DNA of 24,244 nucleotides from a virus (Duplodnaviria; Caudoviricetes), in the IMG/VR virus record IMGVR_UViG_3300017938_000004, positions 1 through 24,244 of that record; one strand, 5' to 3'. This document shows positions 552 through 24,244 of the stretch, piece by piece; the stretch's first letter is position 1, and every line of letters starts with the position of its first letter. Both the position numbers and the translations under genes were made by a program. The notes below the pieces were generated by a model. That model did no database searches, was not told the DNA's origin, and was given only the letters and a program-made list of their open reading frames with translations.

Positions 552-552
552 A

Positions 553-600: not shown

Positions 601-630
601 AGCCACAAAAACGGAGAAAATTTAGATAAC

Positions 631-2058: not shown

Positions 2059-2597
2059 AAGTTTGTTTATATGCAAGAGTTTCAAAAGAAGAAGAAGGAA
2101 TGCAAGACCCAAACAATCAGCTTATTCCTTTAAGAAAATTCTGTGAATCAATGCAATGGGAAATAAAAAAAGAATTTATTGACAGGGCTTCTGGAGGTTC
2201 TGCAAACAGACCAGCATTTCAATTAATGTTAAGTGAAGTAAAGCAAAGGCATTTTGATTTGATTCTTATTTGGGCATTAGACAGATTTTCAAGAGAAGGA
2301 ATTGTTAGCACATTAAAATATTGCCAACTTCTTAATGATTATAAAACTTCCTTAAAGAGTCTGCAGGAATCATGGTTAGATACAAGAGATGAAGGCATGG
2401 GGCAATTAATGTTGGCAATGATGGCTTGGTTTGCCCAACAAGAAAGAAAAAGAATAAGTGATAGAACAAAAGCAGGATTAAAACAAAAGAAAGAAGAAGG
2501 GAAGATTTTGGGAAGACCAAAGGGATGGAGAAAAAGTAAAATAAAAGGGGTTCAAAATCCTTCTTATAAAAACACTCAAAAAGAGGTAGAGGTTTAG
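2055..2597 (+). CDS. Serine recombinase, resolvase/invertase family (180 aa)
   Basis: MKVCLYARVS catalytic Ser motif, DRASG, RPAF, LDRFSR, ERKRISDRTKAGL...GRP; start reassigned from 1908 to ATG 2055; no clear C-terminal HTH. Confidence 0.95.
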   Translation: MKVCLYARVSKEEEGMQDPNNQLIPLRKFCESMQWEIKKEFIDRASGGSANRPAFQLMLSEVKQRHFDLILIWALDRFSREGIVSTLKYCQLLNDYKTSLKSLQESWLDTRDEGMGQLMLAMMAWFAQQERKRISDRTKAGLKQKKEEGKILGRPKGWRKSKIKGVQNPSYKNTQKEVEV

Positions 2598-2610
2598 ATG
2601 TCCGTTTAAT

Positions 2611-2790
2611 ATGCAATTTGAAATAATCCAACTAAAAATGGGAGGATGGAAGAAACTGAAATTTCCAAGAAGATGCAAAGTATGCAACAAAGTATTAGGC
2701 AAACAGAACAAATCAGGAATCTGCTCTAATTGCTCTCTTGAAATTCGTCAAAAAAATCAACATGACATACTCCCATACCCTAAAGGGTAG
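2611..2790 (+). CDS. Small Zn-finger protein (59 aa, not in ORF track)
   Basis: RRCKVCNKVLGKQNKSGICSNC; its stop codon lies inside element L. Confidence 0.65.
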   Translation: MQFEIIQLKMGGWKKLKFPRRCKVCNKVLGKQNKSGICSNCSLEIRQKNQHDILPYPKG

Positions 2791-2811
2791 GGTATCTTAA
2801 AGAAAATGGAA
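2762..2811 (+). repeat. Left-end hairpin element L, copy in cassette 1 (50 bp)
   Basis: Identical to 23900-23949; ATGACATACTCCCATACCC-TAAA-GGGTAGGGTATCTTAAAGAAAATGGAA; stem TACCC/GGGTA. Confidence 0.95.
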
Positions 2812-3474
2812 ACAAAAACAATAAAGATTTTGAATTTATATGCTGGAATTGGTGGAAATAGAAAACTATGGACAGGAGATATAGAAGTTACGGCAGTAGA
2901 GAATGTTCCAGAGATAGCTAAGATATACCAAGACTTTTTCCCTAATGATAAGGTAATAGTAACAGATGCACACCAATTTTTATTAGAACATTTTAAAGAA
3001 TTTGATTTTATATGGAGTTCTCCACCTTGTCCAAGTCATAGTAGGATAAATACTATGTTAGTAAATGGAAGAGGGTTTAAAGCAAAGTTTCCAGATATGA
3101 AACTTTATGAAGAGATATTGTTTCTACAAGCATACTTTAAAGGGAAATGGATTGTTGAGAATGTTAGAAGTTTTTATACTCCTTTAATTAAACCACAAGA
3201 AAGAGGTAGACATTATTATTGGAGTAATTTTGAGATAGGATATTTAGGAAAAAGTAAGAAAGTTAGGAATGATAAAGGTTCAATTTTGAGTTTAAAAATG
3301 AAAGATAGAGAAATGGTTGTTAGTGATTTTAAAGATTATAAAGGGGATAAAAGGACTTTGATAAATAATTGTGTAGAACCTATTGTAGGATTATTAATAT
3401 TTGAAATGGCTTTCAAGAAACCACAAAAAACTTTATTAGAACAAAAAGGGGGTCTCAATTCCTCCCAAGCTTGA
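2806..3474 (+). CDS. Orphan C5-cytosine DNA methyltransferase (222 aa)
   Basis: Motif I LYAGIGG, motif IV SPPC, motif VI ENV, RGRHY; last 9 aa encoded by element R. Confidence 0.9.
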   Translation: METKTIKILNLYAGIGGNRKLWTGDIEVTAVENVPEIAKIYQDFFPNDKVIVTDAHQFLLEHFKEFDFIWSSPPCPSHSRINTMLVNGRGFKAKFPDMKLYEEILFLQAYFKGKWIVENVRSFYTPLIKPQERGRHYYWSNFEIGYLGKSKKVRNDKGSILSLKMKDREMVVSDFKDYKGDKRTLINNCVEPIVGLLIFEMAFKKPQKTLLEQKGGLNSSQA

Positions 3475-3505
3475 AAGCATGGGTATCCTTGAGACGATTA
3501 TATGA
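3444..3505 (+). repeat. Right-end hairpin element R, copy in cassette 1 (62 bp)
   Basis: Identical to 159-220. Confidence 0.95.
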
Positions 3506-3807
3506 ACACAAAAGAATTCTTCACTAAGTGGAAGCAGGGAATAGAAGCAATAACACCTTACCAGCAAGTCAGGGGTCAGTTATTCAGCATAATCCCAATC
3601 TTCATAGGAATTATCATAGGAATAATAGTAACAATAAAATCTCATACTTGGTGGCTTGTCTTAATTTTAGGTGGCTCTTTAATCCTGACTTTCTTCCAAT
3701 TTATAGGAATGCTGCAAAGATTTTTAAGGTTGAGAGTCCAAAGAGATATTATGAAGTCCATGCAGGATGTGATTCCAGGAGGTTCAAGTGAAACCAAGAC
3801 TCCTTAG
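3502..3807 (+). CDS. Two-TM membrane protein (101 aa)
   Basis: Two hydrophobic helices; start codon at the end of R. Confidence 0.8.
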   Translation: MNTKEFFTKWKQGIEAITPYQQVRGQLFSIIPIFIGIIIGIIVTIKSHTWWLVLILGGSLILTFFQFIGMLQRFLRLRVQRDIMKSMQDVIPGGSSETKTP

Positions 3808-4006
3808 ATTTCTTGCAGGGCTTTCAATAGCTTCTTCTCTTATGTTTATTCTTAGTAACATTGCAGCAATAAATGATGTAATGAAAGCAAACATTCCAAA
3901 CAAATTTCCCATTTATCTTGAAGCCATCATTTATCTTGTTCTTCTCATCGTTGATTTGATTGTCGCATTTCAGCTGTGGGAAAAGGCAAAGAAGAGGTTA
4001 AAGTAA
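3788..4006 (+). CDS. Two-TM membrane protein (72 aa)
   Basis: GTG start after GGAGGT; two hydrophobic helices. Confidence 0.75.
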   Translation: MKPRLLRFLAGLSIASSLMFILSNIAAINDVMKANIPNKFPIYLEAIIYLVLLIVDLIVAFQLWEKAKKRLK

Positions 4007-4007
4007 T

Positions 4008-4526
4008 ATGGTAAATAATTGTTTATGGTGTGGAGAACCAATTTTAGAAGGAATAAATAGGGAATATCATCCAATTTGTGTTAAAAGGAAATATAATTTT
4101 AATAATAGAAAAAAAGCATCAGAGTATTTCCAAAAGAACAAGGAGAAGATTTATTCAGTTAAGAGAATTTATAACATTAAAAATAAGGAAAAAATAGATG
4201 AAATAAAAAGAAAGTATAGGATAAAGAATAGGGAAATTCTAAATAAAAAGGCATTAAAACATTCTAAAAAAAATAGAGACAAAATAAATAAATATCATAA
4301 AGAATGGAAGAAAAATAACAAAAAGATAGTTAATGCAGAAAATCAGGCATCTATAAAAATTCAATTATTAGATTCTTGTCAAATTTGTGGAAGTAAAGAG
4401 AATCTACAAAGACATCACTGGGATTATAACAGACCATTATTAGTTACTACTTTATGTAAAGATTGTCATAGAATTCAACATATAAAGAACTTTGAAAACA
4501 GTTTCTTTGGGAGGGTATCTTGTTAG
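4008..4526 (+). CDS. HNH endonuclease with N-terminal Lys-rich helical repeats
   Basis: CQICG...LQRHHWDY...LCKDCHRIQH; YxxKNKEKI-type repeats; N-terminal CxxC...HxxC. Confidence 0.85.
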   Translation: MVNNCLWCGEPILEGINREYHPICVKRKYNFNNRKKASEYFQKNKEKIYSVKRIYNIKNKEKIDEIKRKYRIKNREILNKKALKHSKKNRDKINKYHKEWKKNNKKIVNAENQASIKIQLLDSCQICGSKENLQRHHWDYNRPLLVTTLCKDCHRIQHIKNFENSFFGRVSC

Positions 4527-4792
4527 GAGATGTCTGGGATTGGATAGCAGAAAAAACAGGAGAAAGCTGGGAAACATTCTTAGGATATTTTTCTAATCTT
4601 AATGAATTCTCTACTCCTGGATTAGTTGGAGGAATAATCTGCATGGGCTTTATTTTCTTCGTAAGGGGAAAACTTCTCAATCCATTCATCAAGGCAATGC
4701 CAGTAGCTCAAGGTGTTATAACTTATATTATTTGTTTTGCAGGAGCATTTATTGTAGGATACTTATTCATGAAGAGGGCATTTGAACAATGA
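4520..4792 (+). CDS. Two-TM membrane protein (90 aa)
   Basis: TTG start after GGAGG; two hydrophobic helices. Confidence 0.75.
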   Translation: MLGDVWDWIAEKTGESWETFLGYFSNLNEFSTPGLVGGIICMGFIFFVRGKLLNPFIKAMPVAQGVITYIICFAGAFIVGYLFMKRAFEQ

Positions 4793-4802
4793 AAGGAGGT
4801 CT

Positions 4803-5162
4803 ATGGGAGAACGATTTGAAAGATTCAAGCTGGACTTGCACAATAAAATAAAGCAGGGAACAATAGAAAGCAATCTGAATGGAGAAAGAGTCCTGATGAA
4901 ATATGGAGGTTGGCATATTGGATTCTTTGACTTGAGAACCTGGCATGTTATCAATCCGCCAGTAGTAGAAGAAAATGGAAAGCTAAAGATGAATTGGCCT
5001 AACTTTATTTTTGGAGGTTGGAAGAATCTCTGGAAACTTGTAGGAGTAATAATAGTATTCGGAGCTGTTTTATTGAGCTATTCTAATATAGTAAACCAAT
5101 TCAATCATTTAGTAAAGACTTGCACACCTTATTCTGTTAATTTGTCAGCTGCATTGAAGTAA
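4803..5162 (+). CDS. Single-TM membrane protein (119 aa)
   Basis: ATG 4803 follows AGGAGGT; C-terminal TM helix. Confidence 0.75.
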   Translation: MGERFERFKLDLHNKIKQGTIESNLNGERVLMKYGGWHIGFFDLRTWHVINPPVVEENGKLKMNWPNFIFGGWKNLWKLVGVIIVFGAVLLSYSNIVNQFNHLVKTCTPYSVNLSAALK

Positions 5163-5274
5163 TTAGTTATTTTTTTGGATTTAACTTACCCTTCCTTTAC
5201 TTTTTTCTGATTTCCTTAGCCAGGTTAATTATTATAAAGTATACTTATAACCGAGAATTAGACAAAAAACCTTA
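5163..5274. terminator. Convergent intergenic region with oligo-T tracts
   Basis: TTTTTTT and TTTTTT on the + strand after 5162, and an A6 tract (T on the - strand) near 5264; archaeal-type terminators. Confidence 0.5.
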
Positions 5275-6141
5275 TTAGCCGTGTTTTTCCGACACTTCGC
5301 CGTCATTTTCTTCTGAGGTATCGGAGTATTCTTCAAGTATCTTGTAAATTTCAGCACGGCTCAAGCCACAAATCTCTGAAATCTCCTTTGCAGGTATTCT
5401 TTTCTTTTCTTTTAGGTAGACTATCAGCTTATTCCTTTGCTGAACCTTCTTATCCTGGTTCTGTTTGTTCTTTGATTGTTCAATCAGATGCTTTCCTTTC
5501 ATCTTCTCATACAAATCCCAGTCAGCAATCCATTTCTTTGTATATCTTCCCCTGAAGTTAGGTTTCTCTGCATTGTAATCAACAAACTTGTTCCCTTTGA
5601 CATACAATTTCCTTTTTTCATCCCTTCCGAAAGCTGCAAAGTAACCTCTTTCAAAAGAATCAGAATAAACAACGAACAAATGCGAAGTCCTGAAGATAGC
5701 AATGCCTTTAGACAAGTCAAAGAAATTAGGAAGGCAAAGAATAATGAATAATCCTTTCTGCCTTATTAGTTGCAGATGGTTTACAATCCTTAAAAATTCA
5801 GCAGAGCTTGAAACTCTTGAATTTAAGCTCTCAAAAGATTCATCAAGCATGAAAGCCATACCTGTTTTGGCATCAGGACTTGCTGTTCTTTCAATCAATC
5901 CATTTTCTCCTGTTCCTGTAAAGCATATTCTGTCTTTTGCATTGAATGAAGGGTCAAGAAACTTGCATATCTGCTGTGTGAATGTAGATTTCCCTGTTCC
6001 TGGAATCCCTGCGACAATAGCCAAGTAATCCCATCCCCTTTTCAATACAGAATTTTTTACAGCTTCAAGATTTTCCTTTAATGTTTCATCAATATACATT
6101 TCATCATCAGAACCATCATCTCTTTTTGCAGGGACTATCAT
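5275..6141 (-). CDS. P-loop ATPase with C-terminal HTH (putative morphogenesis/packaging ATPase)
   Basis: Walker A GIPGTGKS, Walker B FMLDES, IRQKGLFIILC; C-terminal AKEISEICGLSRAEIYKIL; next to capsid genes as in spindle-shaped viruses. Confidence 0.85.
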   Translation of the reverse strand: MIVPAKRDDGSDDEMYIDETLKENLEAVKNSVLKRGWDYLAIVAGIPGTGKSTFTQQICKFLDPSFNAKDRICFTGTGENGLIERTASPDAKTGMAFMLDESFESLNSRVSSSAEFLRIVNHLQLIRQKGLFIILCLPNFFDLSKGIAIFRTSHLFVVYSDSFERGYFAAFGRDEKRKLYVKGNKFVDYNAEKPNFRGRYTKKWIADWDLYEKMKGKHLIEQSKNKQNQDKKVQQRNKLIVYLKEKKRIPAKEISEICGLSRAEIYKILEEYSDTSEENDGEVSEKHG

Positions 6142-6545
6142 TATTTGTTCAGGTTCTTCTTATCTTCCTTAGGGGGAATAAGATAACCATATTTTTTTAG
6201 AGTATCCATTAATAGTTCACTGTAAGAATCCAGATTTTTAATAAGTTCACTTCCATAATTCTTTGAGAACTCAACTTTCTTGGAAAGATTGAATCCAGAA
6301 TATGTAGTAACCTGAAGTCCGAATGTATTGTTCAGCTCTTTTTCTTTTTCAACAAACTTTTCCCTCTCATCCTGCTTCAAATTAGCAACGATAATCATTC
6401 TTATCGCCTTAAGATTCCTAAAGCATGTTTCAAAATTATATCTTATGTAATTATTTGTAGCTGCATTGAGAATAATCGCTATTTGTTCAATAATTGCCTG
6501 GGATAAATTCCAAGCAACCTCTTGACTGTCAGAAGTGTATGCCAT
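6141..6545 (-). CDS. Hypothetical helical protein (134 aa)
   Basis: TAATG-coupled to the ATPase; probably leaderless. Confidence 0.8.
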   Translation of the reverse strand: MAYTSDSQEVAWNLSQAIIEQIAIILNAATNNYIRYNFETCFRNLKAIRMIIVANLKQDEREKFVEKEKELNNTFGLQVTTYSGFNLSKKVEFSKNYGSELIKNLDSYSELLMDTLKKYGYLIPPKEDKKNLNK

Positions 6546-6562
6546 AATTATGAAACTATAAA

Positions 6563-6590
6563 AAACACAATCTTTATTAAGTTTGTGTTT
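6563..6590. promoter_or_regulatory. Palindromic divergent promoter/operator
   Basis: AAACACAA-T-CTT-TATT-AAG-T-TTGTGTTT; central TTTATTAA reads as TATA-like on both strands. Confidence 0.65.
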
Positions 6591-6647
6591 ATATTAAAAT
6601 TATGGAAAATCGCAAGATTCTTCCCTTCATGAAGGAGGGTAGTAAAG

Positions 6648-6869
6648 ATGTTAGGAAATTTAATAACTGGGTTCTTGATTATTCTCGTTGGAGTAAATTT
6701 AGCCCCAACAGTTGCTAACCAGGTAGCTGCACAGACAAGCAATACAAACTTCACAAACGGCTCTTCTGCTGTTCTTAGTTTGGTTACATTGTTCTTTGTC
6801 CTTGCAGTCGCTGTAGCAGCAATGGATATAGCTGTCGTTGGACTCAGACAATCAGGACTTATAATTTAA
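6648..6869 (+). CDS. Major capsid protein, spindle-virus type, paralogue 1 (73 aa)
   Basis: Two hydrophobic helices joined by a short loop with sequons NFT and NGS; GGAGG RBS; architecture of SSV1 VP1/VP3 and His1 MCP. Confidence 0.8.
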   Translation: MLGNLITGFLIILVGVNLAPTVANQVAAQTSNTNFTNGSSAVLSLVTLFFVLAVAVAAMDIAVVGLRQSGLII

Positions 6870-6889
6870 GTTTCCACATTTGAAATAAA

Positions 6890-7153
6890 ATGTTAGGAAA
6901 TTTAATTACAGGATTCTTGATTATCTTGGTTGGAGTGAATATAGCTCCAACAGTCGCATCACAAGTCCAGGTAGCAGTTTATCCATGGTCAAACGGAACA
7001 GGGCCAGGAGCAAACTTGACCCCAAGCGATAACTTCACAAACGGTTCAGGAGCAGTGCTTACACTTGTAACACTATTCTTCGTTTTGGCAGTTGCTGTTG
7101 CTGCGATGGATATTGCAGTAGTAGGCCTTAGACAATCAGGACTCGTCATATAA
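6890..7153 (+). CDS. Major capsid protein, spindle-virus type, paralogue 2 (87 aa)
   Basis: Helices almost identical to 6648-6869, with a 14-aa longer loop carrying four sequons. Confidence 0.8.
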   Translation: MLGNLITGFLIILVGVNIAPTVASQVQVAVYPWSNGTGPGANLTPSDNFTNGSGAVLTLVTLFFVLAVAVAAMDIAVVGLRQSGLVI

Positions 7154-7168
7154 AGAGGAAAAGAGAGA

Positions 7169-8434
7169 ATGAATCATAAAATTCACAATGGGAACGATTT
7201 GTTTAAAATGATTTTTTGTTCCCTTCTCTTTCTTAGTCTCATTAGTTTTGCTTCTGCTTCTTTCGGCTACGGAAATATAAATACTTCCACAAAATATGGA
7301 TATGGAAATATTTTCACAACATCTCCCCAAGTAAATAATTATAACAATACATATACAAATGTAACAAATGGAACAGATAGCTTTGCAGGAAATTTCTCCA
7401 ACTTCTCCTCTGTTTATGCCATCGGAACTAATGGAACATTTTATCTCGCTTCAAATCCTTCTTCATTCATAACTGCTTCTTCTCTTTCTCCTTATCTTCT
7501 TATAACAAATTGGAACTCCACAAATTCATCTTATAACACTTTTTTAACAAATAATACTTTCTTGCAGATTTCAAATTGGAATTCAACAAATTCAAGTTAT
7601 AATACAGCTTTTTTTTTAGCAACCAATAATACTTTTATGAAATTCTCGGATTGGAATAGCACTAATTCAAGCTATCTTACATCAGAAACTTACTGGAATG
7701 GAAATTGGTCTGCATTCAAAACAATAAATCAATCTGTAACCAATAATACATTCTTACAAATAAGCAATTTCAATGTTACAAATTCCTCTTACCTAACTTC
7801 CTATACAGAAACAGACCCAAAATGGACTGCTAACTATTCAGGATTCCTTACAACTCAAAATTATGCTCTTAATTGGAATAACAACTGGACATGGTTTAAA
7901 ACAATTAACACAACTATCTCCAATGGAACATTCGCACAATTAGTTTCAACATCAAATCCTACTACGGCTAATTTCACAGGCAATCTTTCTGTATTCCAGA
8001 ACTTCACAGTTGATTCAGGAACATTCTTCGTAGATGCACTTCATAATTATATTGGTGTCAATCTTTCAACTCCTCAAAATGCACTGAATGTTTTTGGAGA
8101 TGCAAACATAACAGGAACAATATACACAAATTTCAATCAGAATTTAACAATACCTTATTTGTTGGCAACAAACAATACTTTCACTCAGCTTACAATCCTT
8201 AACAACGGAACATATACAACATGGGCAAATATTTTCAATGGAACAATAGCAACCAATGGAACACAAAATAACTTTTCAGTTGCAGGGATAAACACAAACT
8301 CAATAAGGATAAATGGAACAAATGGAAACCAGAGTGCAAAATACAATCTTCATGTCAATGGAAGTGCAGGAAAGATATGCTGGATAAATTATACAGGAGG
8401 ATTGTTCAACTGGTCTGACTGCCCACAAGGTTAA
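7169..8434 (+). CDS. Secreted Asn/Thr-rich fibre or adhesin glycoprotein
   Basis: Signal peptide (start may be ATG 7208); NWNSTNSSY-type repeats, YTETDP, FVDALHNYIGVNLSTPQNALNVFG fibre-like beta motif; many sequons. Confidence 0.75.
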   Translation: MNHKIHNGNDLFKMIFCSLLFLSLISFASASFGYGNINTSTKYGYGNIFTTSPQVNNYNNTYTNVTNGTDSFAGNFSNFSSVYAIGTNGTFYLASNPSSFITASSLSPYLLITNWNSTNSSYNTFLTNNTFLQISNWNSTNSSYNTAFFLATNNTFMKFSDWNSTNSSYLTSETYWNGNWSAFKTINQSVTNNTFLQISNFNVTNSSYLTSYTETDPKWTANYSGFLTTQNYALNWNNNWTWFKTINTTISNGTFAQLVSTSNPTTANFTGNLSVFQNFTVDSGTFFVDALHNYIGVNLSTPQNALNVFGDANITGTIYTNFNQNLTIPYLLATNNTFTQLTILNNGTYTTWANIFNGTIATNGTQNNFSVAGINTNSIRINGTNGNQSAKYNLHVNGSAGKICWINYTGGLFNWSDCPQG

Positions 8435-8476
8435 AATGAAAAAACTATATTCAAATAGCAAGAAAGGAGAGAAAAG

Positions 8477-9085
8477 ATGAAAAAGATATATTTGTTTTTG
8501 ATGGCTTTTCTTCTGATAGGAGTAGTCAGTGCTTCAACAAATGACCTCGGCTTCTTTGCCCCTGGCTCATGTGTTCCCTTGATTCAGACCTGCTCCAACA
8601 ACTGCACATTCAACAACATCAGCTCAATCTATGTTTCAAATGGAGGAGGAACTCCTACAGTAACTTCCTATTCTTCCCCTCTTGTAATGACAACGACAAA
8701 TAATTTCTCCTACAATTACACTTACTGCAATACAACCTCGCTGGGAAATTATTATGTCAATGGATATGGAAATGACGGAGGAACACAAGGAAATTGGACA
8801 TACCAGTTTGAAATAGGATTTCCAATGTGGCTTGTTATTGTCTTCATGATTTTCTCCTATGGTCTTGCCATAATGGGCTTCTTTATGTATAAGAACGAAT
8901 GGATTTCTCTTGCAGGGGGAATGATGATGCTTCTCCTTGGAATTTACATAACTTCATACGGAATTTCAATCTACAACAATACCCTGACTTTGGCGATTGG
9001 GTATTTCACTATTGCACTTGGAGGAGTTGCAGCATTAGTTCCAATAGGAGAAAGATTGGAAGTAGATTTCAATCGGTTCGGATAA
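8477..9085 (+). CDS. Membrane glycoprotein: signal peptide, Cys-containing ectodomain, three C-terminal TMs
   Basis: MKKIYLFLMAFLLIGVVSA signal peptide; AGGAG RBS; sequons. Confidence 0.85.
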   Translation: MKKIYLFLMAFLLIGVVSASTNDLGFFAPGSCVPLIQTCSNNCTFNNISSIYVSNGGGTPTVTSYSSPLVMTTTNNFSYNYTYCNTTSLGNYYVNGYGNDGGTQGNWTYQFEIGFPMWLVIVFMIFSYGLAIMGFFMYKNEWISLAGGMMMLLLGIYITSYGISIYNNTLTLAIGYFTIALGGVAALVPIGERLEVDFNRFG

Positions 9086-9097
9086 AAAGGAGGAAAA

Positions 9098-9253
9098 ATG
9101 GCAGAAGACAAAAAAGAAGTTGAGATAATCCAAGTTCCTACACAGACAGCTTCGGCATTCAAGCTCCCAGACGGAAGAGTGCTTAACTTTGACGAATATC
9201 TCACTTGGATTGGAAACATTCTCATAAAACTTGAAAAAGTTTGGAGCAAATAA
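9098..9253 (+). CDS. Hypothetical protein (51 aa, not in ORF track)
   Basis: MAEDKKEVEIIQVPTQ...; AGGAGG RBS; TAATG overlap downstream. Confidence 0.75.
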   Translation: MAEDKKEVEIIQVPTQTASAFKLPDGRVLNFDEYLTWIGNILIKLEKVWSK

Positions 9254-9570
9254 TGATTAAAGGATACATAAGCCAGGCAGACCAGATGGTAGAAGTAACA
9301 ATAGCAGGAGATGGACTGAAATTCATGGACATCACGAATGACGATTTGATAATGCCTAATTTTGTCTATCTCAAGGTCATCCAAGAGTTCCCTGACTTGA
9401 AGGATGACAAAGACTGGGCAGCAAAGGCATTTGAAAGATTCAAACAGCATTTCCTCAAGATAGAAGGCGAAATGAACAGATTAAAATACATAGTGGCAGA
9501 AATGATTAAACAAGGTTACAAGCCAGAATATTACGAAGAAAACGGATTCAGGCGAAGGAGGTTTGAATGA
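9253..9570 (+). CDS. Hypothetical protein (105 aa)
   Basis: Start reassigned to ATG 9253 (TAATG coupling). Confidence 0.8.
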   Translation: MIKGYISQADQMVEVTIAGDGLKFMDITNDDLIMPNFVYLKVIQEFPDLKDDKDWAAKAFERFKQHFLKIEGEMNRLKYIVAEMIKQGYKPEYYEENGFRRRRFE

Positions 9571-9738
9571 ATGAGCTTCAACACGGACTTGAACTCAGTA
9601 TTGAGTTTTGTTCTTCCGATAGTTGCTCTTTTTCTTTTCATGGTTGCAGCATACGGAGTTGTAAAGCAGATTTCTTTTGGAGAAGCATACAAGGAGATAA
9701 TGGAAAAAATAAGGGAGGGATTATCTAATGGCAGATGA
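9571..9738 (+). CDS. Single-TM protein (55 aa, not in ORF track)
   Basis: MSFNTDLNSVLSFVLPIVALFLFMVAAYGVVK...; AGGAGGT upstream. Confidence 0.75.
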   Translation: MSFNTDLNSVLSFVLPIVALFLFMVAAYGVVKQISFGEAYKEIMEKIREGLSNGR

Positions 9739-10168
9739 AGATTTTGATTTAAGCAAATTATCTCCAACGGAGCAGGAAATAGTCAAGGCAGAAGTAGTAA
9801 GAGTCTTCGGTTCTGAAAAGATTGGAAATATCCATGAGTTTCTTACAAAAGTAATTCAGGAAGGCGACACGACAAAGTTGGGTTATCTTACAAAGGAAGA
9901 AGTCGGCTATCCTCATTTAACTCTCCGTTCTTATAAAAAATTAGCACACATGTCAAAAGAATTTGAACTGCCTGAATTTACAGATTACTTTGACAATCTT
10001 GCACACAATGTCGTTGCATCTCCAAGTCTGTCTAAGGAAGGATTCTTACTTCTATTGTCAATCACAGAGAAGAAAAAATCAGAGCTTAAGATTCCAGGGC
10101 AGAAGAAAGAGAACAAGGGATGGTTTGGAAGCAAGAATACTCCAGAAACAGCAGGAGATAATTTATGA
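9728..10168 (+). CDS. Hypothetical protein (146 aa)
   Basis: GGAGG RBS; fills the operon. Confidence 0.8.
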   Translation: MADEDFDLSKLSPTEQEIVKAEVVRVFGSEKIGNIHEFLTKVIQEGDTTKLGYLTKEEVGYPHLTLRSYKKLAHMSKEFELPEFTDYFDNLAHNVVASPSLSKEGFLLLLSITEKKKSELKIPGQKKENKGWFGSKNTPETAGDNL

Positions 10169-10190
10169 TAGTTGAAAGGAGGAGATATTG

Positions 10191-10715
10191 ATGGCAGAAG
10201 AAAATAAAGAAATCAAGCCAGAAGAAAAAACTCCCCTTCAGAAGATAGATGAAATACATAATCTTTTTGTTCCTGCAGACGATAAAAAGCTGAAGAAGAA
10301 GGAGCTTAAAATTCCAAAGATTTCAAAAGGAAAGGCGAAGAAGGGATGGGTAATAGTAGAAAAGATTGATACAAACAGAAATATCAGCTTTGAGAAACAG
10401 CAAGTAGCACAGGATATATTCAAGATGAAGGATGGAATTTTACATGCCACAGACGGAAGGGAAATATTCTTCTACAAGAATCTTCCCTTGATTCATCAAC
10501 CAGCATGGAGAATAAATCCATTTGACCCTGTAACAGAAAAAGGAGAATTGACAAGCAGGAACAATGTCTATGGATTAAAACCAATATTAGCAGAGATAGA
10601 ATCAGGAAAATATGTTGAGCAGAAGAAAAGAGGAGGATTAGGAGGTATCTGGATGATTATTTTAATCATCGGTGGTGGATACTTGTTAGGTCATTCCCTA
10701 TTGCATATATTTTGA
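10191..10715 (+). CDS. C-terminally anchored membrane protein
   Basis: AGGAGGAG RBS; C-terminal TM. Confidence 0.8.
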   Translation: MAEENKEIKPEEKTPLQKIDEIHNLFVPADDKKLKKKELKIPKISKGKAKKGWVIVEKIDTNRNISFEKQQVAQDIFKMKDGILHATDGREIFFYKNLPLIHQPAWRINPFDPVTEKGELTSRNNVYGLKPILAEIESGKYVEQKKRGGLGGIWMIILIIGGGYLLGHSLLHIF

Positions 10716-10996
10716 GCTACGGAAAGGCAAAATGGAATCCTTATGGGGATTTGGAAGGATACAACATAGAAATAAGCATTCGTGATAGTGCAAACAACAA
10801 AATTGACCATTACAGAATATACAATGAGAATCAGTATCAAGCAGTCCTGAAGGAAATAAAGAACAAATATGGATTAAAGTATCCTATTGAAATAAAGGAA
10901 GTGGAAAAGAAGCAGACTCCTTTAACTATGACTGCAACACAGATTAAGATAGAAGCAGGAATAGAAGAAACGGAAAAGAAAACACAATCTATTTAA
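10712..10996 (+). CDS. Hypothetical protein (94 aa)
   Basis: TTGA overlap with the upstream stop; start uncertain. Confidence 0.6.
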   Translation: MSYGKAKWNPYGDLEGYNIEISIRDSANNKIDHYRIYNENQYQAVLKEIKNKYGLKYPIEIKEVEKKQTPLTMTATQIKIEAGIEETEKKTQSI

Positions 10997-11001
10997 AGTT
11001 T
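10980..11001 (+). promoter_or_regulatory. Archaeal promoter sharing a motif with the 6563 promoter
   Basis: AAACACAATCTATTTAAAGTTT vs AAACACAATCTTTATTAAGTTT; ATG at +39 in both. Confidence 0.6.
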
Positions 11002-11018
11002 AAAATACATGTAAATTG

Positions 11019-11171
11019 ATGAAATGGTTTACTATAAAACCAATAGTCAATAAAGCAAACAACCAGATTAATATTTCCCTTCCTAAAAAGGAACTGCCCT
11101 CAGAACTATTAAAGGATATTCATACAAATAAAAAGATTGAAATAACATTCAAAGGGAGGAAACTAAAATGA
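11019..11171 (+). CDS. Small AbrB/SpoVT-like DNA-binding protein (50 aa, not in ORF track)
   Basis: NKANNQINISLPKK...KIEITF pattern; leaderless position after TATA. Confidence 0.55.
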   Translation: MKWFTIKPIVNKANNQINISLPKKELPSELLKDIHTNKKIEITFKGRKLK

Positions 11172-11344
11172 GATTTAAACTTATAGATAATAACGAACCA
11201 GCAGATAGGAGAGATTTTTTATTTATATCTGCCATTTGTTTTGTCCTTGCACTTACTGTTCTTGTTGCACCTTTAATTGCTCAACATCTTTCAACTCAGC
11301 ATATTGTTTATCAATCATTGATTCAAAACCAATGCCTTAAATGA
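11168..11344 (+). CDS. Single-TM protein (58 aa, not in ORF track)
   Basis: ATGA overlap, GGAGG RBS, FLFISAICFVLALTVLVAPLIA helix. Confidence 0.7.
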   Translation: MRFKLIDNNEPADRRDFLFISAICFVLALTVLVAPLIAQHLSTQHIVYQSLIQNQCLK

Positions 11345-11392
11345 TAAATAATAAAACCATGATAATCAATTCAAGCCAGAAGATGAGTTTCT

Positions 11393-13621
11393 GTGGTTGA
11401 TACAAATACAGTAGTTAATGCAGCATTTCTATCAGGAGCAGCAGCATCAAATGCAGGAATTACAAGTAGTTCTTCCTCATCTTCAACAGCAGCTACTAAT
11501 TCAGGATTTAATGCAGCAGGTCAGGCAGTAGTTCAGAATGCTTTTGGAGGTTGGTCTCCAGTTATCAATGGAGTTGTTCAAAATCAATCAGTATTAGGTC
11601 CAGTATCTCCAGCTTCAATAAATGTTTCAGGTGGAGGAGGTTATTTCGGCGGAGGTGGTGGGGGCGGAGTTTTTCAATCAACTCCTTTCACTTCTTCTAT
11701 TCTTGGAGGTTCAGGAGCTTTAAGTGGAAGTCAGGCAGCACAACAAGCAGCACAAAATGCAGGACTTTCAGCTTCTCAATTATCTTCTTACCTTACTTCC
11801 CAACAGGCAGCAGCACAATCAGCAGCAAGATTAGCAGCTCAAAGTAACATAGCTGTTGGAGATATATATGTTCCTGGATTAAATATGTATTCTTCAGGAG
11901 GAACAAAAGACCAGACAGCAATATTAAGATTTCCAACACCATCAGAACAGAAGAAAATAGATTTAGCAAATGCACAAGGTTCTTTTTCCAACCTTCCTCC
12001 AGTTAAATTCTTAAAAGGAGAATATGGATTTCAGCAAAAGACATTGAAAGGAACACCAATAAATCAATCAGCAACAAGCAGTTATGGTCAGCCAACAATC
12101 CCTTCAAATTATACTGGCTTTAATGTCTATAAGACAACAGATGACTTATTCCAAAAAGGAAATGAGATATTTACAAAGAATATAAATCCACTTCTTATCA
12201 AGGCAGGAGTTAATAAAGAGCTTGTCAATACAAATGTTTCTGTTCCATCAAATCTTCCTGGACAGCTTCTTGTTACTTCCTTTTTCAGCCCTTTGCTAAA
12301 TACAGGGAGTTATTCACAAGAAGCAGCACAAGAAGTAGCAAATGGAGAACTTAGATATGATTATGTAAAGGGAATATGGGTAAGAGTAAATAAGATAACT
12401 GGAGAAGTAACTCCTGCAGTAACAAGAGATAGTGCCTTAGCTGAATTTAAGGCATCTCCAGAAGAAAGACAAATATCTATATTAAAAAAAGCATTTACCC
12501 ACGAAGGACTTAATCCAGATGCTACCCCAATACAAAAAGTCTATCTTGACCAGCCAAGTTTATTAAAGGATGTAGAAAAAGCAAAATCATTTATGAAAGA
12601 AGCTGGATTGACTGAAGAACAAGCAAACAATCTTATATACAAGTTATTTCCAAAATTAAAACCTAAACTTCCTGCAACTGCAATTTCTTCAGACACAATT
12701 TTAAATGAGCAAACACAAACACCAGTTGCTCCAGTTTCTTCTGGCTATGAAATTAATGCCGAGATACCAAATACAAGAGGAATAAGCAAAATAACTGCTG
12801 CTTCTCAAGTTCCTGCAGAACCTCCTCCACAGAATATCTTAGTCGGAGGAAATCAGCTTTCAACTTCTTATGTAGGAACAAATCAATATGAAAGAACAGC
12901 AGGAGGATTATTACCAAAATCTGCAACCAATCTTAAAATCCAAATGAACGAACAAAGTTCAAGTCTTCTTAATCCTGCTTCTTTGTCAATTAGTGAAGGG
13001 TTGTCTTCTTTGTCAAATCAGGCAAGTTCCTTAAGTAATCCGTCTGCAAGTCTTTCTTCTTCTGCTTCAGTTTCAAGTTCAGCTTCGGCTTCAAAAAGTG
13101 CATCAGAAACATCACAAATTAGTAATTTATTAAATCCAGAATCTTCTCTTTCTATAAATCAACAGGCATCTACTTCTCAAACACAAGAAGAACAGCAGAA
13201 TCAAAATCAAAGAACAAAGTCAAAGGGATTAAGTCTTCTTCTTCCAAGCAATCTTTTAAACAAAGTAAAAAATATTGTCAAAAAACAAGCTCATATCTAC
13301 GAAGCTCTGACAATAAGAAAAAAGAAGTTAGTTCCTTTGGGAGATTTCCTTTCTGCTGATGAGGCATTCAAAAAAGGAGAGGAAGTCAGCAGAAGAACTC
13401 TTGCTCGTTCTTCTTTGGTTATAGCAAAAGATACAGGGCAATTCATCAAACCTTCTAATCTTCCAAATGACTTCAGGTTCTCTAAAAGAAATCCCTATCA
13501 GTTAGTTCAAAGGAAAGCATTGAACAGAGGAACAGGAGAAGTTCCAGAAATTCAGGCAGCAAAAAGAAGCTCTGGAAGAAGATTCACTCCAACTAAATCA
13601 TTCAAGAAAGGAAGAATATGA
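11393..13621 (+). CDS. Large low-complexity Gly/Ser/Ala/Gln-rich protein with basic C-terminus (putative virion-internal protein)
   Basis: 742-aa ORF in the structural module; no signal peptide; start codon uncertain. Confidence 0.75.
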   Translation: MVDTNTVVNAAFLSGAAASNAGITSSSSSSSTAATNSGFNAAGQAVVQNAFGGWSPVINGVVQNQSVLGPVSPASINVSGGGGYFGGGGGGGVFQSTPFTSSILGGSGALSGSQAAQQAAQNAGLSASQLSSYLTSQQAAAQSAARLAAQSNIAVGDIYVPGLNMYSSGGTKDQTAILRFPTPSEQKKIDLANAQGSFSNLPPVKFLKGEYGFQQKTLKGTPINQSATSSYGQPTIPSNYTGFNVYKTTDDLFQKGNEIFTKNINPLLIKAGVNKELVNTNVSVPSNLPGQLLVTSFFSPLLNTGSYSQEAAQEVANGELRYDYVKGIWVRVNKITGEVTPAVTRDSALAEFKASPEERQISILKKAFTHEGLNPDATPIQKVYLDQPSLLKDVEKAKSFMKEAGLTEEQANNLIYKLFPKLKPKLPATAISSDTILNEQTQTPVAPVSSGYEINAEIPNTRGISKITAASQVPAEPPPQNILVGGNQLSTSYVGTNQYERTAGGLLPKSATNLKIQMNEQSSSLLNPASLSISEGLSSLSNQASSLSNPSASLSSSASVSSSASASKSASETSQISNLLNPESSLSINQQASTSQTQEEQQNQNQRTKSKGLSLLLPSNLLNKVKNIVKKQAHIYEALTIRKKKLVPLGDFLSADEAFKKGEEVSRRTLARSSLVIAKDTGQFIKPSNLPNDFRFSKRNPYQLVQRKALNRGTGEVPEIQAAKRSSGRRFTPTKSFKKGRI

Positions 13622-20214: not shown

Positions 20215-20354
20215 CAGCACAAAAAGCTAAAGATACAGAATCGTTTTTTAGAGAAATACAATTAAGAGGAATGATAGCAAAGCAAAGTCCTTTTTATTGG
20301 ATAAGATATAAGATTTATAGGATAAAAGAATATCTATATTATTATTTAACATGA
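20211..20354 (+). CDS. Small ORF in slot A (47 aa, MTAQK..., not in ORF track)
   Basis: ATGA overlaps at both ends. Confidence 0.65.
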   Translation: MTAQKAKDTESFFREIQLRGMIAKQSPFYWIRYKIYRIKEYLYYYLT

Positions 20355-20426
20355 CACAAAAACAAACAAAACAAACAGAGGAGAGCAAAGAATGAAAACT
20401 AAAAAAGAAATACTAAAGATGACTGA
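20354..20426 (+). repeat. 73-bp direct repeat, copy 1 (micro-ORF, RBS and MKTKKEILKMT)
   Basis: Identical to 21585-21657. Confidence 0.95.
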
Positions 20427-21584: not shown

Positions 21585-21657
21585 ACACAAAAACAAACAA
21601 AACAAACAGAGGAGAGCAAAGAATGAAAACTAAAAAAGAAATACTAAAGATGACTGA
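21585..21657 (+). repeat. 73-bp direct repeat, copy 2
   Basis: Identical to 20354-20426. Confidence 0.95.
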
Positions 21658-21859
21658 AAAAGAACTTCAAGATTATAAATGGAGTTCTGATTTAGATATT
21701 AAAGAAGAGAAGAAAGAAACTAACTCTGACTGCTCTGACTGCTTTAACTGCTCTAACTGCAGAAACATAAAAACATATTCGAAGTTTATGATATGCAATG
21801 TTCAGCTTACAGAAAAAGAATACAGAAAGAAGATGAAGGAGTTGAAGAATGAAAACTAA
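21623..21859 (+). CDS. Cys-repeat protein with MKTKKEILKMT leader, variant B (78 aa)
   Basis: NSDCSDCFNCSNCRN encoded by 9-bp tandem units; MICNVQLTEKEY. Confidence 0.8.
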   Translation: MKTKKEILKMTEKELQDYKWSSDLDIKEEKKETNSDCSDCFNCSNCRNIKTYSKFMICNVQLTEKEYRKKMKELKNEN

Positions 21860-22253
21860 AATAACTGAAACAGAAACAGAATACATAGTTAACGGCGACT
21901 TGATACTTACAGAAGATTTCAAGATTTCAAAGCATCTCATAGTTCATGGAGATGTTGAAGGAAAAGACGGCGAGAGATTTAACATAAATGCACGGAACAT
22001 AGATGCAGGGAACATAAATGCATGGAACATAGATGCAAGGAACATAGATGCAAGGAACATAAATGCATGGAACATAGATGCAAGGAACATAAATGCATTG
22101 GACATAAATGCATGGAACATAGATGCATGGAACATAGATGCAAGGAACATAATCTGCGAAACTCGTGTTAAGAAAGATAAGAAATGCAAAACAATAGCGA
22201 GAATTTACATTAAAAATAGAAGCAAAATAAAGAGGAAAGAACATGACGACTGA
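21849..22253 (+). CDS. Pentapeptide-repeat (beta-solenoid) protein, paralogue 1
   Basis: 11 units of [ND]I[DN]A[RWGL]; IVNGDL...LIVHGDV beta-helix-like N-terminus. Confidence 0.85.
   Translation: MKTKITETETEYIVNGDLILTEDFKISKHLIVHGDVEGKDGERFNINARNIDAGNINAWNIDARNIDARNINAWNIDARNINALDINAWNIDAWNIDARNIICETRVKKDKKCKTIARIYIKNRSKIKRKEHDD
21981..22151 (+). repeat. 15-bp tandem array (11 units)
   Basis: RACATARATGCANNG units. Confidence 0.95.
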
Positions 22254-22653
22254 AACAGAAACAGAATACATAGTTAACGGCGACTTGATACTTGAAGAAG
22301 ATTTCAAGATTTCGAAAAATCTCATAGTTCACGGAAATATTAAAGGGAAAGACGGCGAGAGATTTAACATAGATGCATTAGACATAGATGCATGGAACAT
22401 AGATGCAAGGAACATAGATGCAAGGAACATAAATGCAAGGAACATAAATGCAGGGGACATAAATGCATGGGACATAAATGCAGGGGACATAGATGCAGGG
22501 GACATAAATGCAGGGAACATAAATGCATGGAACATAAATGCATTAGACATAATCTGCGAAACTCGTATTAAGAAGTTAAAGGAATGCAAAACAAAGGCGA
22601 GAATTTACATTAAAAATAAAAACAAAATAGAGAGGAAAGAATATGACGACTAA
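22243..22653 (+). CDS. Pentapeptide-repeat (beta-solenoid) protein, paralogue 2
   Basis: 12 units; flanks nearly identical to paralogue 1. Confidence 0.85.
   Translation: MTTETETEYIVNGDLILEEDFKISKNLIVHGNIKGKDGERFNIDALDIDAWNIDARNIDARNINARNINAGDINAWDINAGDIDAGDINAGNINAWNINALDIICETRIKKLKECKTKARIYIKNKNKIERKEYDD
22366..22551 (+). repeat. 15-bp tandem array (12 units)
   Basis: Same unit as 21981-22151 with variants in a different order. Confidence 0.95.
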
Positions 22654-23275
22654 AACAGAAATCTGCTCGTGTGGGCATGAAAGAAAAGAACATAAAAATG
22701 ATTATTATATGATGGGTTCTCAAAAGATAGTTGAAGAAGATGTATGTTGGCATAAAGAAGGTAATTATTATAATTGCTCCTGTAAAAAGTTCACACCTCA
22801 AACTCCCGAAGACAAAAAGCCAAAAGTATTTATTGAAAGAGCAGAGCCATTAACAATAGAAGGAATAAGAGCAATTTGTATGAATGATGAAGATTATGCT
22901 AAATATAGAAAGGACAAAACTTCGGGGGATTTTTGTTTGAGTGATAAGATTTTGAGTAGAGTAAATCAAGTTAATGAACATTTTAAAGAATTAGATAAAA
23001 GGAAATTACCTTATGATATTAGAGAAAGAGCATTAATGACTTCTCTACCTTTGGTTATTCAAAATGATGTAAAAGAATTCGTGCGGAGATTGAAGTCTAA
23101 ATTTAAAGATGGATGTGGAATGGGTTTTACTTGGAATGACCAAGATGCCACTTGTGGAGATGATTTTGAATATGAAGGTAAGATTAAAGTTATCTTATGT
23201 TCTACTTGTCTTGAAAAGATAAAAGAAATAGACAAACTGTGTGGTTCAAAATTATCAGGAGAAAAAGATGCCTAA
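22643..23275 (+). CDS. Cys-rich hypothetical protein (210 aa)
   Basis: CSCGHERKEH...C...CSCKKF and C-terminal Cys motifs; MTTKTEI leader. Confidence 0.8.
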   Translation: MTTKTEICSCGHERKEHKNDYYMMGSQKIVEEDVCWHKEGNYYNCSCKKFTPQTPEDKKPKVFIERAEPLTIEGIRAICMNDEDYAKYRKDKTSGDFCLSDKILSRVNQVNEHFKELDKRKLPYDIRERALMTSLPLVIQNDVKEFVRRLKSKFKDGCGMGFTWNDQDATCGDDFEYEGKIKVILCSTCLEKIKEIDKLCGSKLSGEKDA

Positions 23276-23624
23276 GAAAGGATATATCAAAACAGAAGAG
23301 CATAGAAAGAAACTAAGTAATTCTATTTTAGAATCTGATAAGGGTTTTCAGAAAGGACATCAGACTTGGAACAAACAAGGGAAAGGCAGACTTAAAAGAA
23401 AGTTCAAGAGAGTAGAAGGCAAGATGATACTTAACTCTCATCACGTTTGGCTTATGCACAATAATCTAAAGACTATACCTAAAGGGTATATAATTCATCA
23501 CAAAGACCTAAACTCTATGAATGATGACATCTCTAATCTTATCTTAATGACTGATATTGACCATAAGAAATTGCATGGAGAGTTAGATAGAAAACGATTT
23601 ATGGCGGAGGAAAAATTAATATGA
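23268..23624 (+). CDS. HNH endonuclease with NUMOD3-like N-terminus (118 aa)
   Basis: KTEEHRKKLS, FQKGHQTWNK; IPKGYIIHHKDLNSMNDDISNLILM...HKKLH; start reassigned to ATG 23268 after AGGAG. Confidence 0.9.
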   Translation: MPKKGYIKTEEHRKKLSNSILESDKGFQKGHQTWNKQGKGRLKRKFKRVEGKMILNSHHVWLMHNNLKTIPKGYIIHHKDLNSMNDDISNLILMTDIDHKKLHGELDRKRFMAEEKLI

Positions 23625-23779
23625 TTAGAACTGAAATTTGTGGGTGTAAATATCTTTTGGATATAGATGGAACTAAAACTTTCGTAGCATTTTGTAAAGA
23701 ACATTCTTTTCTTAATTTTGGAAGGCATCCAAATCAAATAAAACCAATTGTAAAATCGGGGGAAAAATTAAGCAAATGA
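23621..23779 (+). CDS. Small Cys/His protein (52 aa, not in ORF track)
   Basis: MIRTEICGC...FCKEH; GGAGG RBS; ATGA overlaps at both ends. Confidence 0.7.
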   Translation: MIRTEICGCKYLLDIDGTKTFVAFCKEHSFLNFGRHPNQIKPIVKSGEKLSK

Positions 23780-23898
23780 CACAAAAACAAATAAAACAAG
23801 AACTTAAGAGAAAGGTTGAAGAAAGAGATTGGATAATAATAGCATTAGTAATATTATGGTTTTTAACTTTAGCTTTTTTTAATATGGGTTTATGGTAA
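23776..23898 (+). CDS. Single-TM peptide, MTQKQ-leader family (40 aa, not in ORF track)
   Basis: First 19 nt identical to the ORF 217 start; WIIIALVILWFLTLAFF helix. Confidence 0.7.
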   Translation: MTQKQIKQELKRKVEERDWIIIALVILWFLTLAFFNMGLW

Positions 23899-23899
23899 A

Positions 23900-23949
23900 A
23901 TGACATACTCCCATACCCTAAAGGGTAGGGTATCTTAAAGAAAATGGAA
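23900..23949 (+). repeat. Left-end hairpin element L, copy in cassette 2 (50 bp)
   Basis: Identical to 2762-2811. Confidence 0.95.
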
Positions 23950-24244
23950 CTAAAGCAATTTATAAAACAAATACCAACACCAGAAGAAACACTTGTTGAT
24001 TATGATAAAAAGATAGCCGAACAAAAAGCTGAATATTATAGAAAGAACAAAGACAAGATAGCCGAATATCGTAGAAAGAACAAAGACAAGATAGCCGAAT
24101 ATTTAGCTGAATATTATAGAAAGAACAAAGACAAGATAGCCGAATATTTAGCTGAATATTATAGAAAGAACAAAGACAAGATAGCCGAATATCGTAGAAA
24201 GAACAAAGACAAGATAGCCGAACAAAAAGCTGAATATTATAGAA
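23944..24244 (+). CDS. 5' part of the origin-spanning Lys/Glu/Tyr helical-repeat protein (139 aa total)
   Basis: MELKQFIKQIPTPEETLVDYDKKIAEQKAEYYRKNKDKIAE...; open to the window end; 33- and 45-bp units. Confidence 0.85.
   Translation, partial: MELKQFIKQIPTPEETLVDYDKKIAEQKAEYYRKNKDKIAEYRRKNKDKIAEYLAEYYRKNKDKIAEYLAEYYRKNKDKIAEYRRKNKDKIAEQKAEYYR
24175..24244. repeat. Terminal direct repeat, copy 2
   Basis: Identical to 1-70. Confidence 0.95.

Follow-up and report, generated by a model that had tools for sequence, protein, structure and literature searches.

Window, virus and host

The stretch analysed here (the window, 24,244 nt) is a circle of 24,174 nt with a terminal overlap of 70 nt, and makes up contig C3 of G000, a 530-kb assembly in three contigs that is 92.5% complete. 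From its sequence, the window looks like an archaeal virus genome, with a virus-like gene set that includes a match to a virion structural PHROG, an ATPase, HNH nucleases and a serine recombinase. The structural match belongs to the first of two tandem small hydrophobic paralogues (6648–6869 and 6890–7153), which we take to be reminiscent of the major capsid proteins of spindle-shaped archaeal viruses. The host is likely a DPANN archaeon, because an archaeal-type ribosomal protein L3 is encoded in a genome of the same order as G000 and because Ca. Woesearchaeota account for three of the seven named records with the L motif described below. The window was linked to G000 as its host by binning only, and BLAST at E<1e-6 gave no DNA link between the window and the other G000 contigs, C1 and C2. 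At 8140–8241, look-alike blocks with loose ends occur in the run contigs; one of them matches the end of C2, but the BLAST search just mentioned gave no link.

A near-identical start or junction motif (ATGACACAAAAACAAA-like) is found at genes 217, 20351, 21582 and 23776 (and 405), and an exact 73-nt repeat (20354–20426 and 21585–21657) lies across a gene junction. Such repeated motifs are possible recombination linkers for gene shuffling. Two adjacent paralogous ORFs (21849–22253 and 22243–22653), made of 5-residue repeats (NIDAR/NINAW), are 89% identical over 289 nt and had no Pfam match. An Rfam scan of the window gave no hits.

Layout of the two cassettes

The window contains two cassettes, each with a cargo ORF between a left-hand sequence, L, and a right-hand sequence, R. 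The two L copies (2762–2811 and 23900–23949) are exactly identical, with the identity beginning at the A of an ATGA, and the two R copies (3444–3505 and 159–220) are exactly identical as well, with the identity ending at the A of an ATGA. These limits bear out the first-pass annotation of this DNA, which had both cassettes begin and end at ATGA. Cassette 2 spans the origin of the circle, running from 23900 to 220. The features are listed below; L and R were assigned to IS200/IS605 ends from their hairpin and guide layout.

Cassette 1 and its surroundings:
2055–2597: serine recombinase, a resident viral gene between the cassettes and part of neither
2611–2790, plus strand: Zn-ribbon (Zn-finger) ORF running through the L-side ATGA, its last 9 codons supplied by L (DILPYPKG and stop)
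2762–2811, minus strand: L, probable IS200/IS605 right end (RE), with guide 2793–2796, hairpin 2772–2792 and TCAT 2762–2765
2762–2800, plus strand: 12-codon ORF in L, the same as in cassette 2
2806–3474, plus strand: cargo 1, a C5 cytosine DNA methyltransferase-like ORF of 222 aa (PF00145, E 2e-7), with its stop in the R hairpin loop
3444–3501, minus strand: R, probable left end (LE), with guide 3484–3487
3479–3505, plus strand: 8-codon mini-ORF in R, starting 4 nt after the cargo stop
3502–3505, plus strand: putative target ATGA, first ATG of a 101-aa ORF (3502–3807) whose native start is uncertain

Cassette 2 and its surroundings:
23776–23898, plus strand: 40-aa ORF upstream of the cassette, untouched, with its stop 1 nt before ATGA
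23900–23949, minus strand: L, probable RE, made up of guide GATA 23931–23934, hairpin 23910–23930, 6 nt and an element-encoded TCAT 23900–23903
23900–23938, plus strand: 12-codon ORF in L (MTYSHTLKGRVS and stop), beginning on the element's own ATG
23944–24244, plus strand: cargo 2, 5′ part of a repeat-rich ORF (PHROG 17714) of 139 aa, the repeat number being uncertain as the contig closes inside the repeats
71–189, plus strand: cargo 2, 3′ part, ending NSSQA, with its stop codon in the R hairpin loop
159–216, minus strand: R, probable LE, with a 14-nt spacer, guide GATA 199–202 and hairpin
194–220, plus strand: 8-codon mini-ORF in R (MGILETII and stop), which begins 4 nt beyond the cargo stop and whose own stop is the TGA of the target ATGA
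217–220, plus strand: putative target ATGA (TCAT on the active strand), start codon of a 63-aa ORF (217–408)

When the cassettes were removed in silico, the junctions read as had been proposed: stop, A, ATG for cassette 2, which is a clean stop–start case, and a Zn-finger ORF ending NQHEHKRILH and stop for cassette 1. The description of L as a 12-codon ORF that ends 5 nt before the cargo ATG holds in both copies.

Cassette ends, guides and targets

Read on the minus strand, R consists of TCAT, a 14-nt stretch, GATA and a hairpin, in that order, and L of GATA, a hairpin, a 6-nt stretch and TCAT. Both hairpins fold, R with a z of about −3 and L more weakly (z −1.3 to −1.7), and their stems covary across copies. 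Subterminal imperfect hairpins at both ends without terminal inverted repeats are like those of the IS200/IS605 family. In IS608-type ends, a guide tetramer 5′ of each hairpin picks the cleavage site by base pairing (PMC5934647 and PMC8266576, accessible text of both), guide base 1 pairing with site base 2 and guide base 2 with site base 1 (PMC5934647, same text). Under this rule, the guide GATA selects TCAT at both ends of the cassettes. Guide base 4 pairs with site base 4, in agreement with the published IS608 sequences.

The rule was applied to viral contigs in a scan of R-type ends in which the guide was left free. Of 91 distinct ends, 83 had the predicted tetramer at a distance of 9–19 nt from the guide, although one of these is probably a chance hit. 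Guide GANA went with ATGA in all 45 of its ends, AAAG with GTAA in 12 of 14, GAAG with GTGA in 7 of 9, AACA with ATAA in 8 of 9 and AAAA with ATAA in 4 of 4. The test of this covariation covered R-type ends, as a guide-free scan of L-type ends gave ten loci and no new guide. The third guide base is variable (L330, L252). On the active strand, 110 of 119 targets among the matches listed have T at +1, where A would be expected if the third guide base paired as in ISDra2. A +1-base preference is known for both IS608 and ISDra2 (PMC5934647, accessible text). One bacterial chromosomal hit (L246) has TTGA despite a GATA guide.

The first-pass annotation had read ATGA as a 4-bp target duplication or a crossover core. 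If it were, for instance, the core of a site-specific recombinase such as that encoded at 2055–2597, with integron-like circles as intermediates, we would expect ATGA at both ends, as observed, and the single common ATGA found in tandem cassettes at six loci among the matches listed; a resolvase-type gene also lies 165 nt before cassette 1. However, IscB elements with the same R begin GTCA yet end at ATGA, four sister cassettes begin GTAA and end at ATGA, and in four other units (L002, L174, L206, L180) the ATGA at L goes with ATAA or TTAA at R. The tetramer follows the guide, the gene found inside the ends of relatives encodes a Y1 TnpA and not a recombinase, and IS200/IS605 elements make no duplication (PMC4810608, accessible text). 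A duplication is contradicted by the GTCA and GTAA sisters and by the guide–tetramer covariation, and this alternative, already largely refuted, is in our judgment very improbable. The serine recombinase was also rejected as the mover of the cassettes, given that TnpA is what lies inside the ends of relatives. An IS607-type cassette was rejected separately, as neither cassette contains the resolvase, which reaches 40 bits where the IS607 cut-off is 110. The Pfam scan of 38 window ORFs gave no match to an integron integrase.

Because the sisters begin GTCA or GTAA and four units differ at R, the sequences identify the right-hand ATGA as the host target and the left-hand ATGA as the element's own terminus; they agree because the guide is GATA at either end. 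ISC and IS605B elements are already known to insert at N|ATGA without duplication (PMC4810608, accessible text), and the motif adjacent to ISGst5 is TTCAT (bioRxiv 10.1101/2023.03.14.532601, accessible text). Going by the known chemistry, the cut would fall before ATGA rather than within it, a distinction that sequence alone cannot make.

Related cassettes, transposase and cargo

Searches with patterns that did not include ATGA gave 117 viral loci, at least 120 metagenomic loci (about 550 estimated) and 7 genomic loci. Among the matches listed, 137 of 150 L-type hairpins have ATGA exactly 8 nt (120 cases) or 6 nt (17 cases) before the hairpin anchor; the other 13 are four hairpin variants with ATGA, six seemingly unrelated sequences, one R end, one ATGG and one TTGA. 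ATGA lies 10–18 nt after the anchor in 117 of the 125 complete R-type hairpins among the matches listed. These counts leave out three cut L and one cut R, and include related copies that are not independent. On the fixed ATGA boundaries, the first-pass annotation was right.

Four related loci (L139, L143, L250, L251) encode an IS200/IS605 TnpA immediately inside L, in the same direction as the cargo and preceding the passengers. All four proteins match NF033573 above the cut-off, with the HVH motif and catalytic Tyr intact. Internally deleted tnpA stubs are present in three others (L108, L153, L170). Neither the window nor the G000 assembly, 92.5% complete, contains a TnpA match, and mobility of the cassettes in G000 and the window is accordingly something that we infer. 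Even with two mismatches allowed, the only hairpins of this type in G000 are the four of the window, and the exact R pattern had no match in the viral contigs. Counting G000, 14 of the 301 genomes in the order contain related ends.

The cargo is varied. The 58 ORFs of complete units, window included, fall into 41 similarity groups among the matches listed. DNA methylases account for 21 of the 56 non-window cargo ORFs among the matches listed, 14 through Pfam methylase families (one below cut-off), 5 through methylase PHROGs in a scan that took in 11 of the 56, and 2 by grouping. Other cargoes include TBP-like, radical-SAM and topoisomerase-like proteins and many small unknowns; the TATA-binding-protein-like cargo (PF00352) is in L138 and L184. 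The Pfam search of the 56 cargo ORFs found no IscB, and IscB elements have only the R end in common with the cassettes. An identity as ISC (IscB element) was rejected on this result and on the absence of HEARO or omega RNA (Rfam) from the window.

Most cargoes begin with ATGG (117 of 131 among the matches listed) in A-rich, element-like sequence and join R near GGAGG, a pattern that points to recombination at translation signals. Recombination between ends is seen, as judged from the sequences, in the hybrids with one hairpin (L197, L208; L196, L216, L249). The tandem R–ATGA–L junctions, at the same six loci among the matches listed, carry the sequence expected of an RE–LE junction. In a crude strand test, with too much noise to carry weight, 90 of 117 cases were on the same strand.

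Several related loci differ from this plan. The sister family with GTAA (L007, L014, L022, L074) is passenger-carrying, and its left end provides a TAA stop and no start; L014 and L074 retain the upstream stop and have GGAGG ahead of the cargo. L001 (reverse strand, 1378–2620) consists of two tandem methylase cassettes with both R hairpins cut off by the same 40-nt replacement, and its contig also carries the TnpA element L251. PATE-like relatives of about 180–220 nt are present in DPANN chromosomes (L381–L394; 9 copies in G293 and 5 in G125), where they stand before housekeeping genes such as rtcB; an antisense tnpA is found in L382/L332. L335 (G194:C4) has related ends and TnpB on the active strand, ahead of a glycosyltransferase-like gene, and in L342 (G058:C30) an L-type end at the contig end lies directly behind a ribosomal protein L3 gene.

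Empty sites

Real empty orthologues, which bear out the expectation of empty sites with one ATGA, are known for three chromosomal insertions (G293 L331, G293 L343 and G190 L330). The genes flanking L331 have orthologues in G000 (C1:152407) that are joined by stop-AAA-ATGA. L343 lies at a 2-oxoacid:ferredoxin oxidoreductase alpha/beta junction, which is a plain ATGA overlap in L371 and L373; an R end before the start was found in none of 14 orthologous loci. L331 and L343 are short, PATE-like relatives with a different L hairpin. L330, from the same genus as G000, has the window's L type and uORF and a 70-aa cargo, and stands before a NOL1/NOP2 methylase gene. This gene pair is together without a cassette in 9 of 14 congeners, with an ATGA overlap in L398 and L401. 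The single ATGA at these three junctions, none of them a site in the window, shows insertion at a fixed target without duplication.

For the window's own junctions (2611/3502 and 23776/217), an empty-site homologue, the comparison that the first-pass annotation had suggested, was found neither in contigs nor in homologue searches. No empty or excised form of either cassette was present in the contigs of runs X5, X7, X8 and X9 (130–12000) or of runs X9, X4, X6 and X11 (22900–24244), and as run contigs drop rare variants, this does not amount to absence. RE–LE circle joints were likewise missing from the contigs of the runs searched. A loose end at 217 in X9, considered as an empty site, turned out to be the gene start at 23776, which resembles it. 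Searches for viral relatives found none for the 3502 and 631 proteins, and among 400 genomes the 217 protein had a single, unconvincing match. When 51 reconstructed empty sites were compared by BLAST with all the collected loci, the only matches were other cassette ends.

Siting at start codons

For the 119 non-tandem L ends with sufficient flanking sequence in the matches listed, an upstream ORF stops at the TGA in 53 cases, 47 sites are intergenic and 19 lie inside an ORF, compared to 182, 475 and 1063 of 1720 same-strand control ATGA from the same loci. An SD-like motif is found ahead of 60 of the 119 sites, among the matches listed, and of 331 of the 1720 controls. When empty sites were reconstructed, 38 of 52 (among the matches listed) were start-like, compared to 439 of the 1720 controls, with thresholds that differ slightly between the two sets. 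The proposed siting on start codons and stop–start overlaps is thus upheld. The associated claim that insertion never breaks a gene is not, in view of the 19 of 119 L ends, among the matches listed, that lie inside an upstream ORF.

The target word itself goes some way towards this siting. AA precedes ATGA in 97 of the 119 L-end sites and in 47 of 55 stop-overlap sites (both among the matches listed), the latter compared to 85 of 155 control overlaps. Of the control AAATGA, 176 of 338 are already start-like and 135 of 338 are inside an ORF. Outside the L-bearing loci, 41 of 58 R ends with an ATGA target, among the matches listed, precede ORFs of at least 30 codons. Given how often AAATGA is start-like, and that ends of other elements with an ATGA target likewise stand before ORFs, an (AA)ATGA target combined with selection accounts best for the siting at start codons, in preference to active sensing of starts.

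We also considered that the element might actively seek translation starts, for example through exposed single-stranded DNA at gene 5′ ends or a protein partner, beyond what sequence and selection provide. The excess over the AAATGA controls, both in start-like sites and in avoidance of ORF interiors, is what such a process would produce. However, purifying selection in gene-dense virus genomes yields the same excess, and the leftover deficit inside ORFs is what selection would leave. Moreover, since other ATGA-target ends, IscB elements included, often precede long ORFs, start siting appears as a property of the target word, and the insertions inside ORFs also speak against active seeking. 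We therefore consider this alternative unlikely and prefer target plus selection.

Cassette 1 itself also speaks against the claim that genes are never broken, since the C-terminus of the Zn-finger ORF is changed and the homologues of the 3502 protein are longer. In eight paired cases of this type, the upstream ORF loses 3–16 codons and gains 6–32 from L. Three homologues of the 3502 protein start 33–39 codons upstream, with its ATG aligning to an internal position, and removal of cassette 1 does not restore these N-terminal residues. Either the protein is a short variant in this virus, or the flanks were not originally adjacent.

Possible translational relay through L and R

The first-pass annotation had proposed that translation is relayed through L to the cargo and through R to the displaced gene. 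The first part is plausible, resting on a conserved uORF beside the cargo ATG. Among the matches listed, 127 of 131 L ends start a 12–14-codon ORF, and in 77 of 83 distinct L sequences this ORF ends within −4 to +8 nt of the cargo ATG, a spacing kept in both the 8-nt and the 6-nt register of L. Only one of the 83 distinct L sequences, among the matches listed, has an SD-like 4-mer before the cargo. In H. volcanii, coupling is 40–60% at 13–14 nt and gone at 22–23 nt (PMC10666635, accessible text). By analogy, the 5-nt gap between uORF and cargo would be compatible with coupling, and the 27-nt gap between the cargo stop and the displaced ATG would not.

The second part of the proposal is more weakly supported. 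The spacing from guide to ATGA is 14 or 17 nt, keeping the frame, in 57 of 58 family ends among the matches listed, but in only 16 of 34 ATGA-target ends of the guide-free set; there are few independent length changes behind this figure, and unrelated ends, too, most often have a spacing of 14 nt. The R arm has an ATG or TTG in 46 of 58 family ends, and the longest ORF itself reaches the overlap in 10 of 58 family units (both among the matches listed). Stops in the R relay frame are not clearly rarer (2 of 19, compared to 6 and 2), and the start triplet of the R mini-ORF is partly forced by the hairpin.

An alternative is that the element is as described and the short ORFs in L and R are by-products of a terminal ATGA and a hairpin, the neighbouring genes surviving only through the preservation of stop and start codons. 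The ATG is indeed forced by the cleavage site and the NTG by the CCCA/TGGG stem, few independent lineages are involved, and stops are not clearly avoided in the R frame; the cargo stops 25–33 nt before the displaced ATG in 40 of 58 units among the matches listed, and the uORF of cassette 1 starts inside the Zn-finger ORF. Against this, the 8- and 6-nt registers of L, with different downstream sequence, each put the stop next to the cargo ATG, and a 7-nt register, which would place the stop in the loop, is absent from the 137 L ends among the matches listed. L lacks an SD, but GGAGG precedes the cargo in two of the four GTAA-type sisters, which have no ATG, and the near-constant R spacing also argues for function. 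On balance, a relay through L to the cargo seems somewhat probable from the sequences. A relay through R seems a little less than an even proposition, and we would put the by-product explanation at about the same level.

Proposed mechanism

Taken together, we consider it very probable that the cassettes are transposase-less IS200/IS605-family elements with a passenger, guided to ATGA, with siting, relay and cargo acquisition along the following lines. A Y1 (HUH) TnpA, of the type found between the same ends in related loci, likely moves the cassettes in trans as single-stranded DNA. The active strand would be the window minus strand, with R as the left end and L as the right end. The element would enter just 5′ of a host ATGA (plus strand) without duplication, its own end adding a second ATGA upstream. 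The target ATGA, with a preferred AA before it, would in AT-rich genomes be a gene start about half the time, and loss of insertions that break genes would lead to the start-codon siting. The element's ATGA would re-create the TGA stop of the upstream gene and open the 12–14-codon ORF, coupling translation to a cargo that lacks its own ribosome-binding motif. More weakly, the mini-ORF or the cargo itself may read through R to the target ATGA, coupling the displaced gene. Likely routes for gaining and exchanging cargo are recombination between copies and the flanking of a gene by two insertions.

A bolder interpretation is that of a translation-neutral gene shuttle, in which both cleavage sites are ATGA, the upstream stop is rebuilt at each stop–start junction entered, two mini-ORFs hand over translation, one to a promoterless passenger and the other to the displaced gene, and start codons serve as universal attachment sites, with dispersed, integron-like capture of whole genes (over a third of them DNA methyltransferases) that are swapped between the viruses and hosts of tiny archaea. 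We offer this more tentatively, as a possibility that we rather doubt.

If the cassettes move as inferred, they would provide a route for viruses of tiny archaea to trade DNA methyltransferases and other small genes, and would explain part of the gene-by-gene mosaicism in these virus genomes. A selfish element of this kind could enter gene-dense operons with little damage. It would also represent a compact design, with about 45 + 60 nt of ends, for gene insertion at a start codon with coupled translation.

Comparison with known systems

The nearest known elements, together with ISGst5, are the ISC and IS605B elements with N|ATGA targets (ISC1-1_MA, IS605B-1_MA and ISC2-1_HM; PMC4810608, accessible text). 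Like these, the cassettes have hairpin ends, insert 5′ of ATGA without duplication and are mostly non-autonomous. As in ISC, the passenger occupies the slot and orientation of iscB, and tnpA, where present, is co-directional as in ISC2Y. Unlike ISC, the left terminus of the cassettes is ATGA and not GT or TT, and the slot holds 41 unrelated passenger groups among the matches listed. Neither "start codon" nor "passenger" occurs in the main text of PMC4810608.

The cassettes resemble IS608 of Helicobacter pylori and ISDra2 in having a guide 5′ of each subterminal hairpin and a Y1 TnpA with HUH (PMC5934647, accessible text), and AAAG/TTAC guide–site pairs are present in the comparison set, as in IS608. 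In IS608 the two cleavage sites differ (CL, TTAC; CR, TCAA; PMC5934647, same text), whereas both are TCAT in the cassettes, mimicking a duplication. Unlike IS608 and ISDra2, the cassettes have passengers in place of tnpB, and tnpA is on the non-active strand. PATEs, short non-coding IS200/IS605 derivatives, are likewise non-autonomous and mobilised in trans, and PATE-like copies of ~190 nt with related ends are those counted above in G293 (9) and G125 (5). Unlike PATEs, the cassettes carry genes, with cargo ORFs fused to start and stop regions supplied by the element. IS derivatives with passengers are known as transporter ISs (tIS), and no IS200/IS605 member is named among them in the accessible text of PMC9330008.

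Like the cassettes described here, integron cassettes are promoterless single genes bounded by single-stranded DNA hairpins, and they occur in tandem arrays. Unlike integrons, the present cassettes have two different ends each, a Y1 TnpA and guide-directed tetramers, are dispersed at gene starts, and do not appear to be associated with an integrase or attI.

The N|ATGA target is already known. In a literature search of mostly open-access papers, PMC6563490 and PMC9330008 (accessible text) among them, we found no description of passenger-carrying IS200/IS605 elements, of ATGA at both cleavage sites or of start-codon siting. Work on IS200/IS605 elements has treated them as vehicles for TnpB and IscB, from which Cas12 and Cas9 descend. 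In the cassettes, the ends of such vehicles are found with dozens of unrelated passenger genes.
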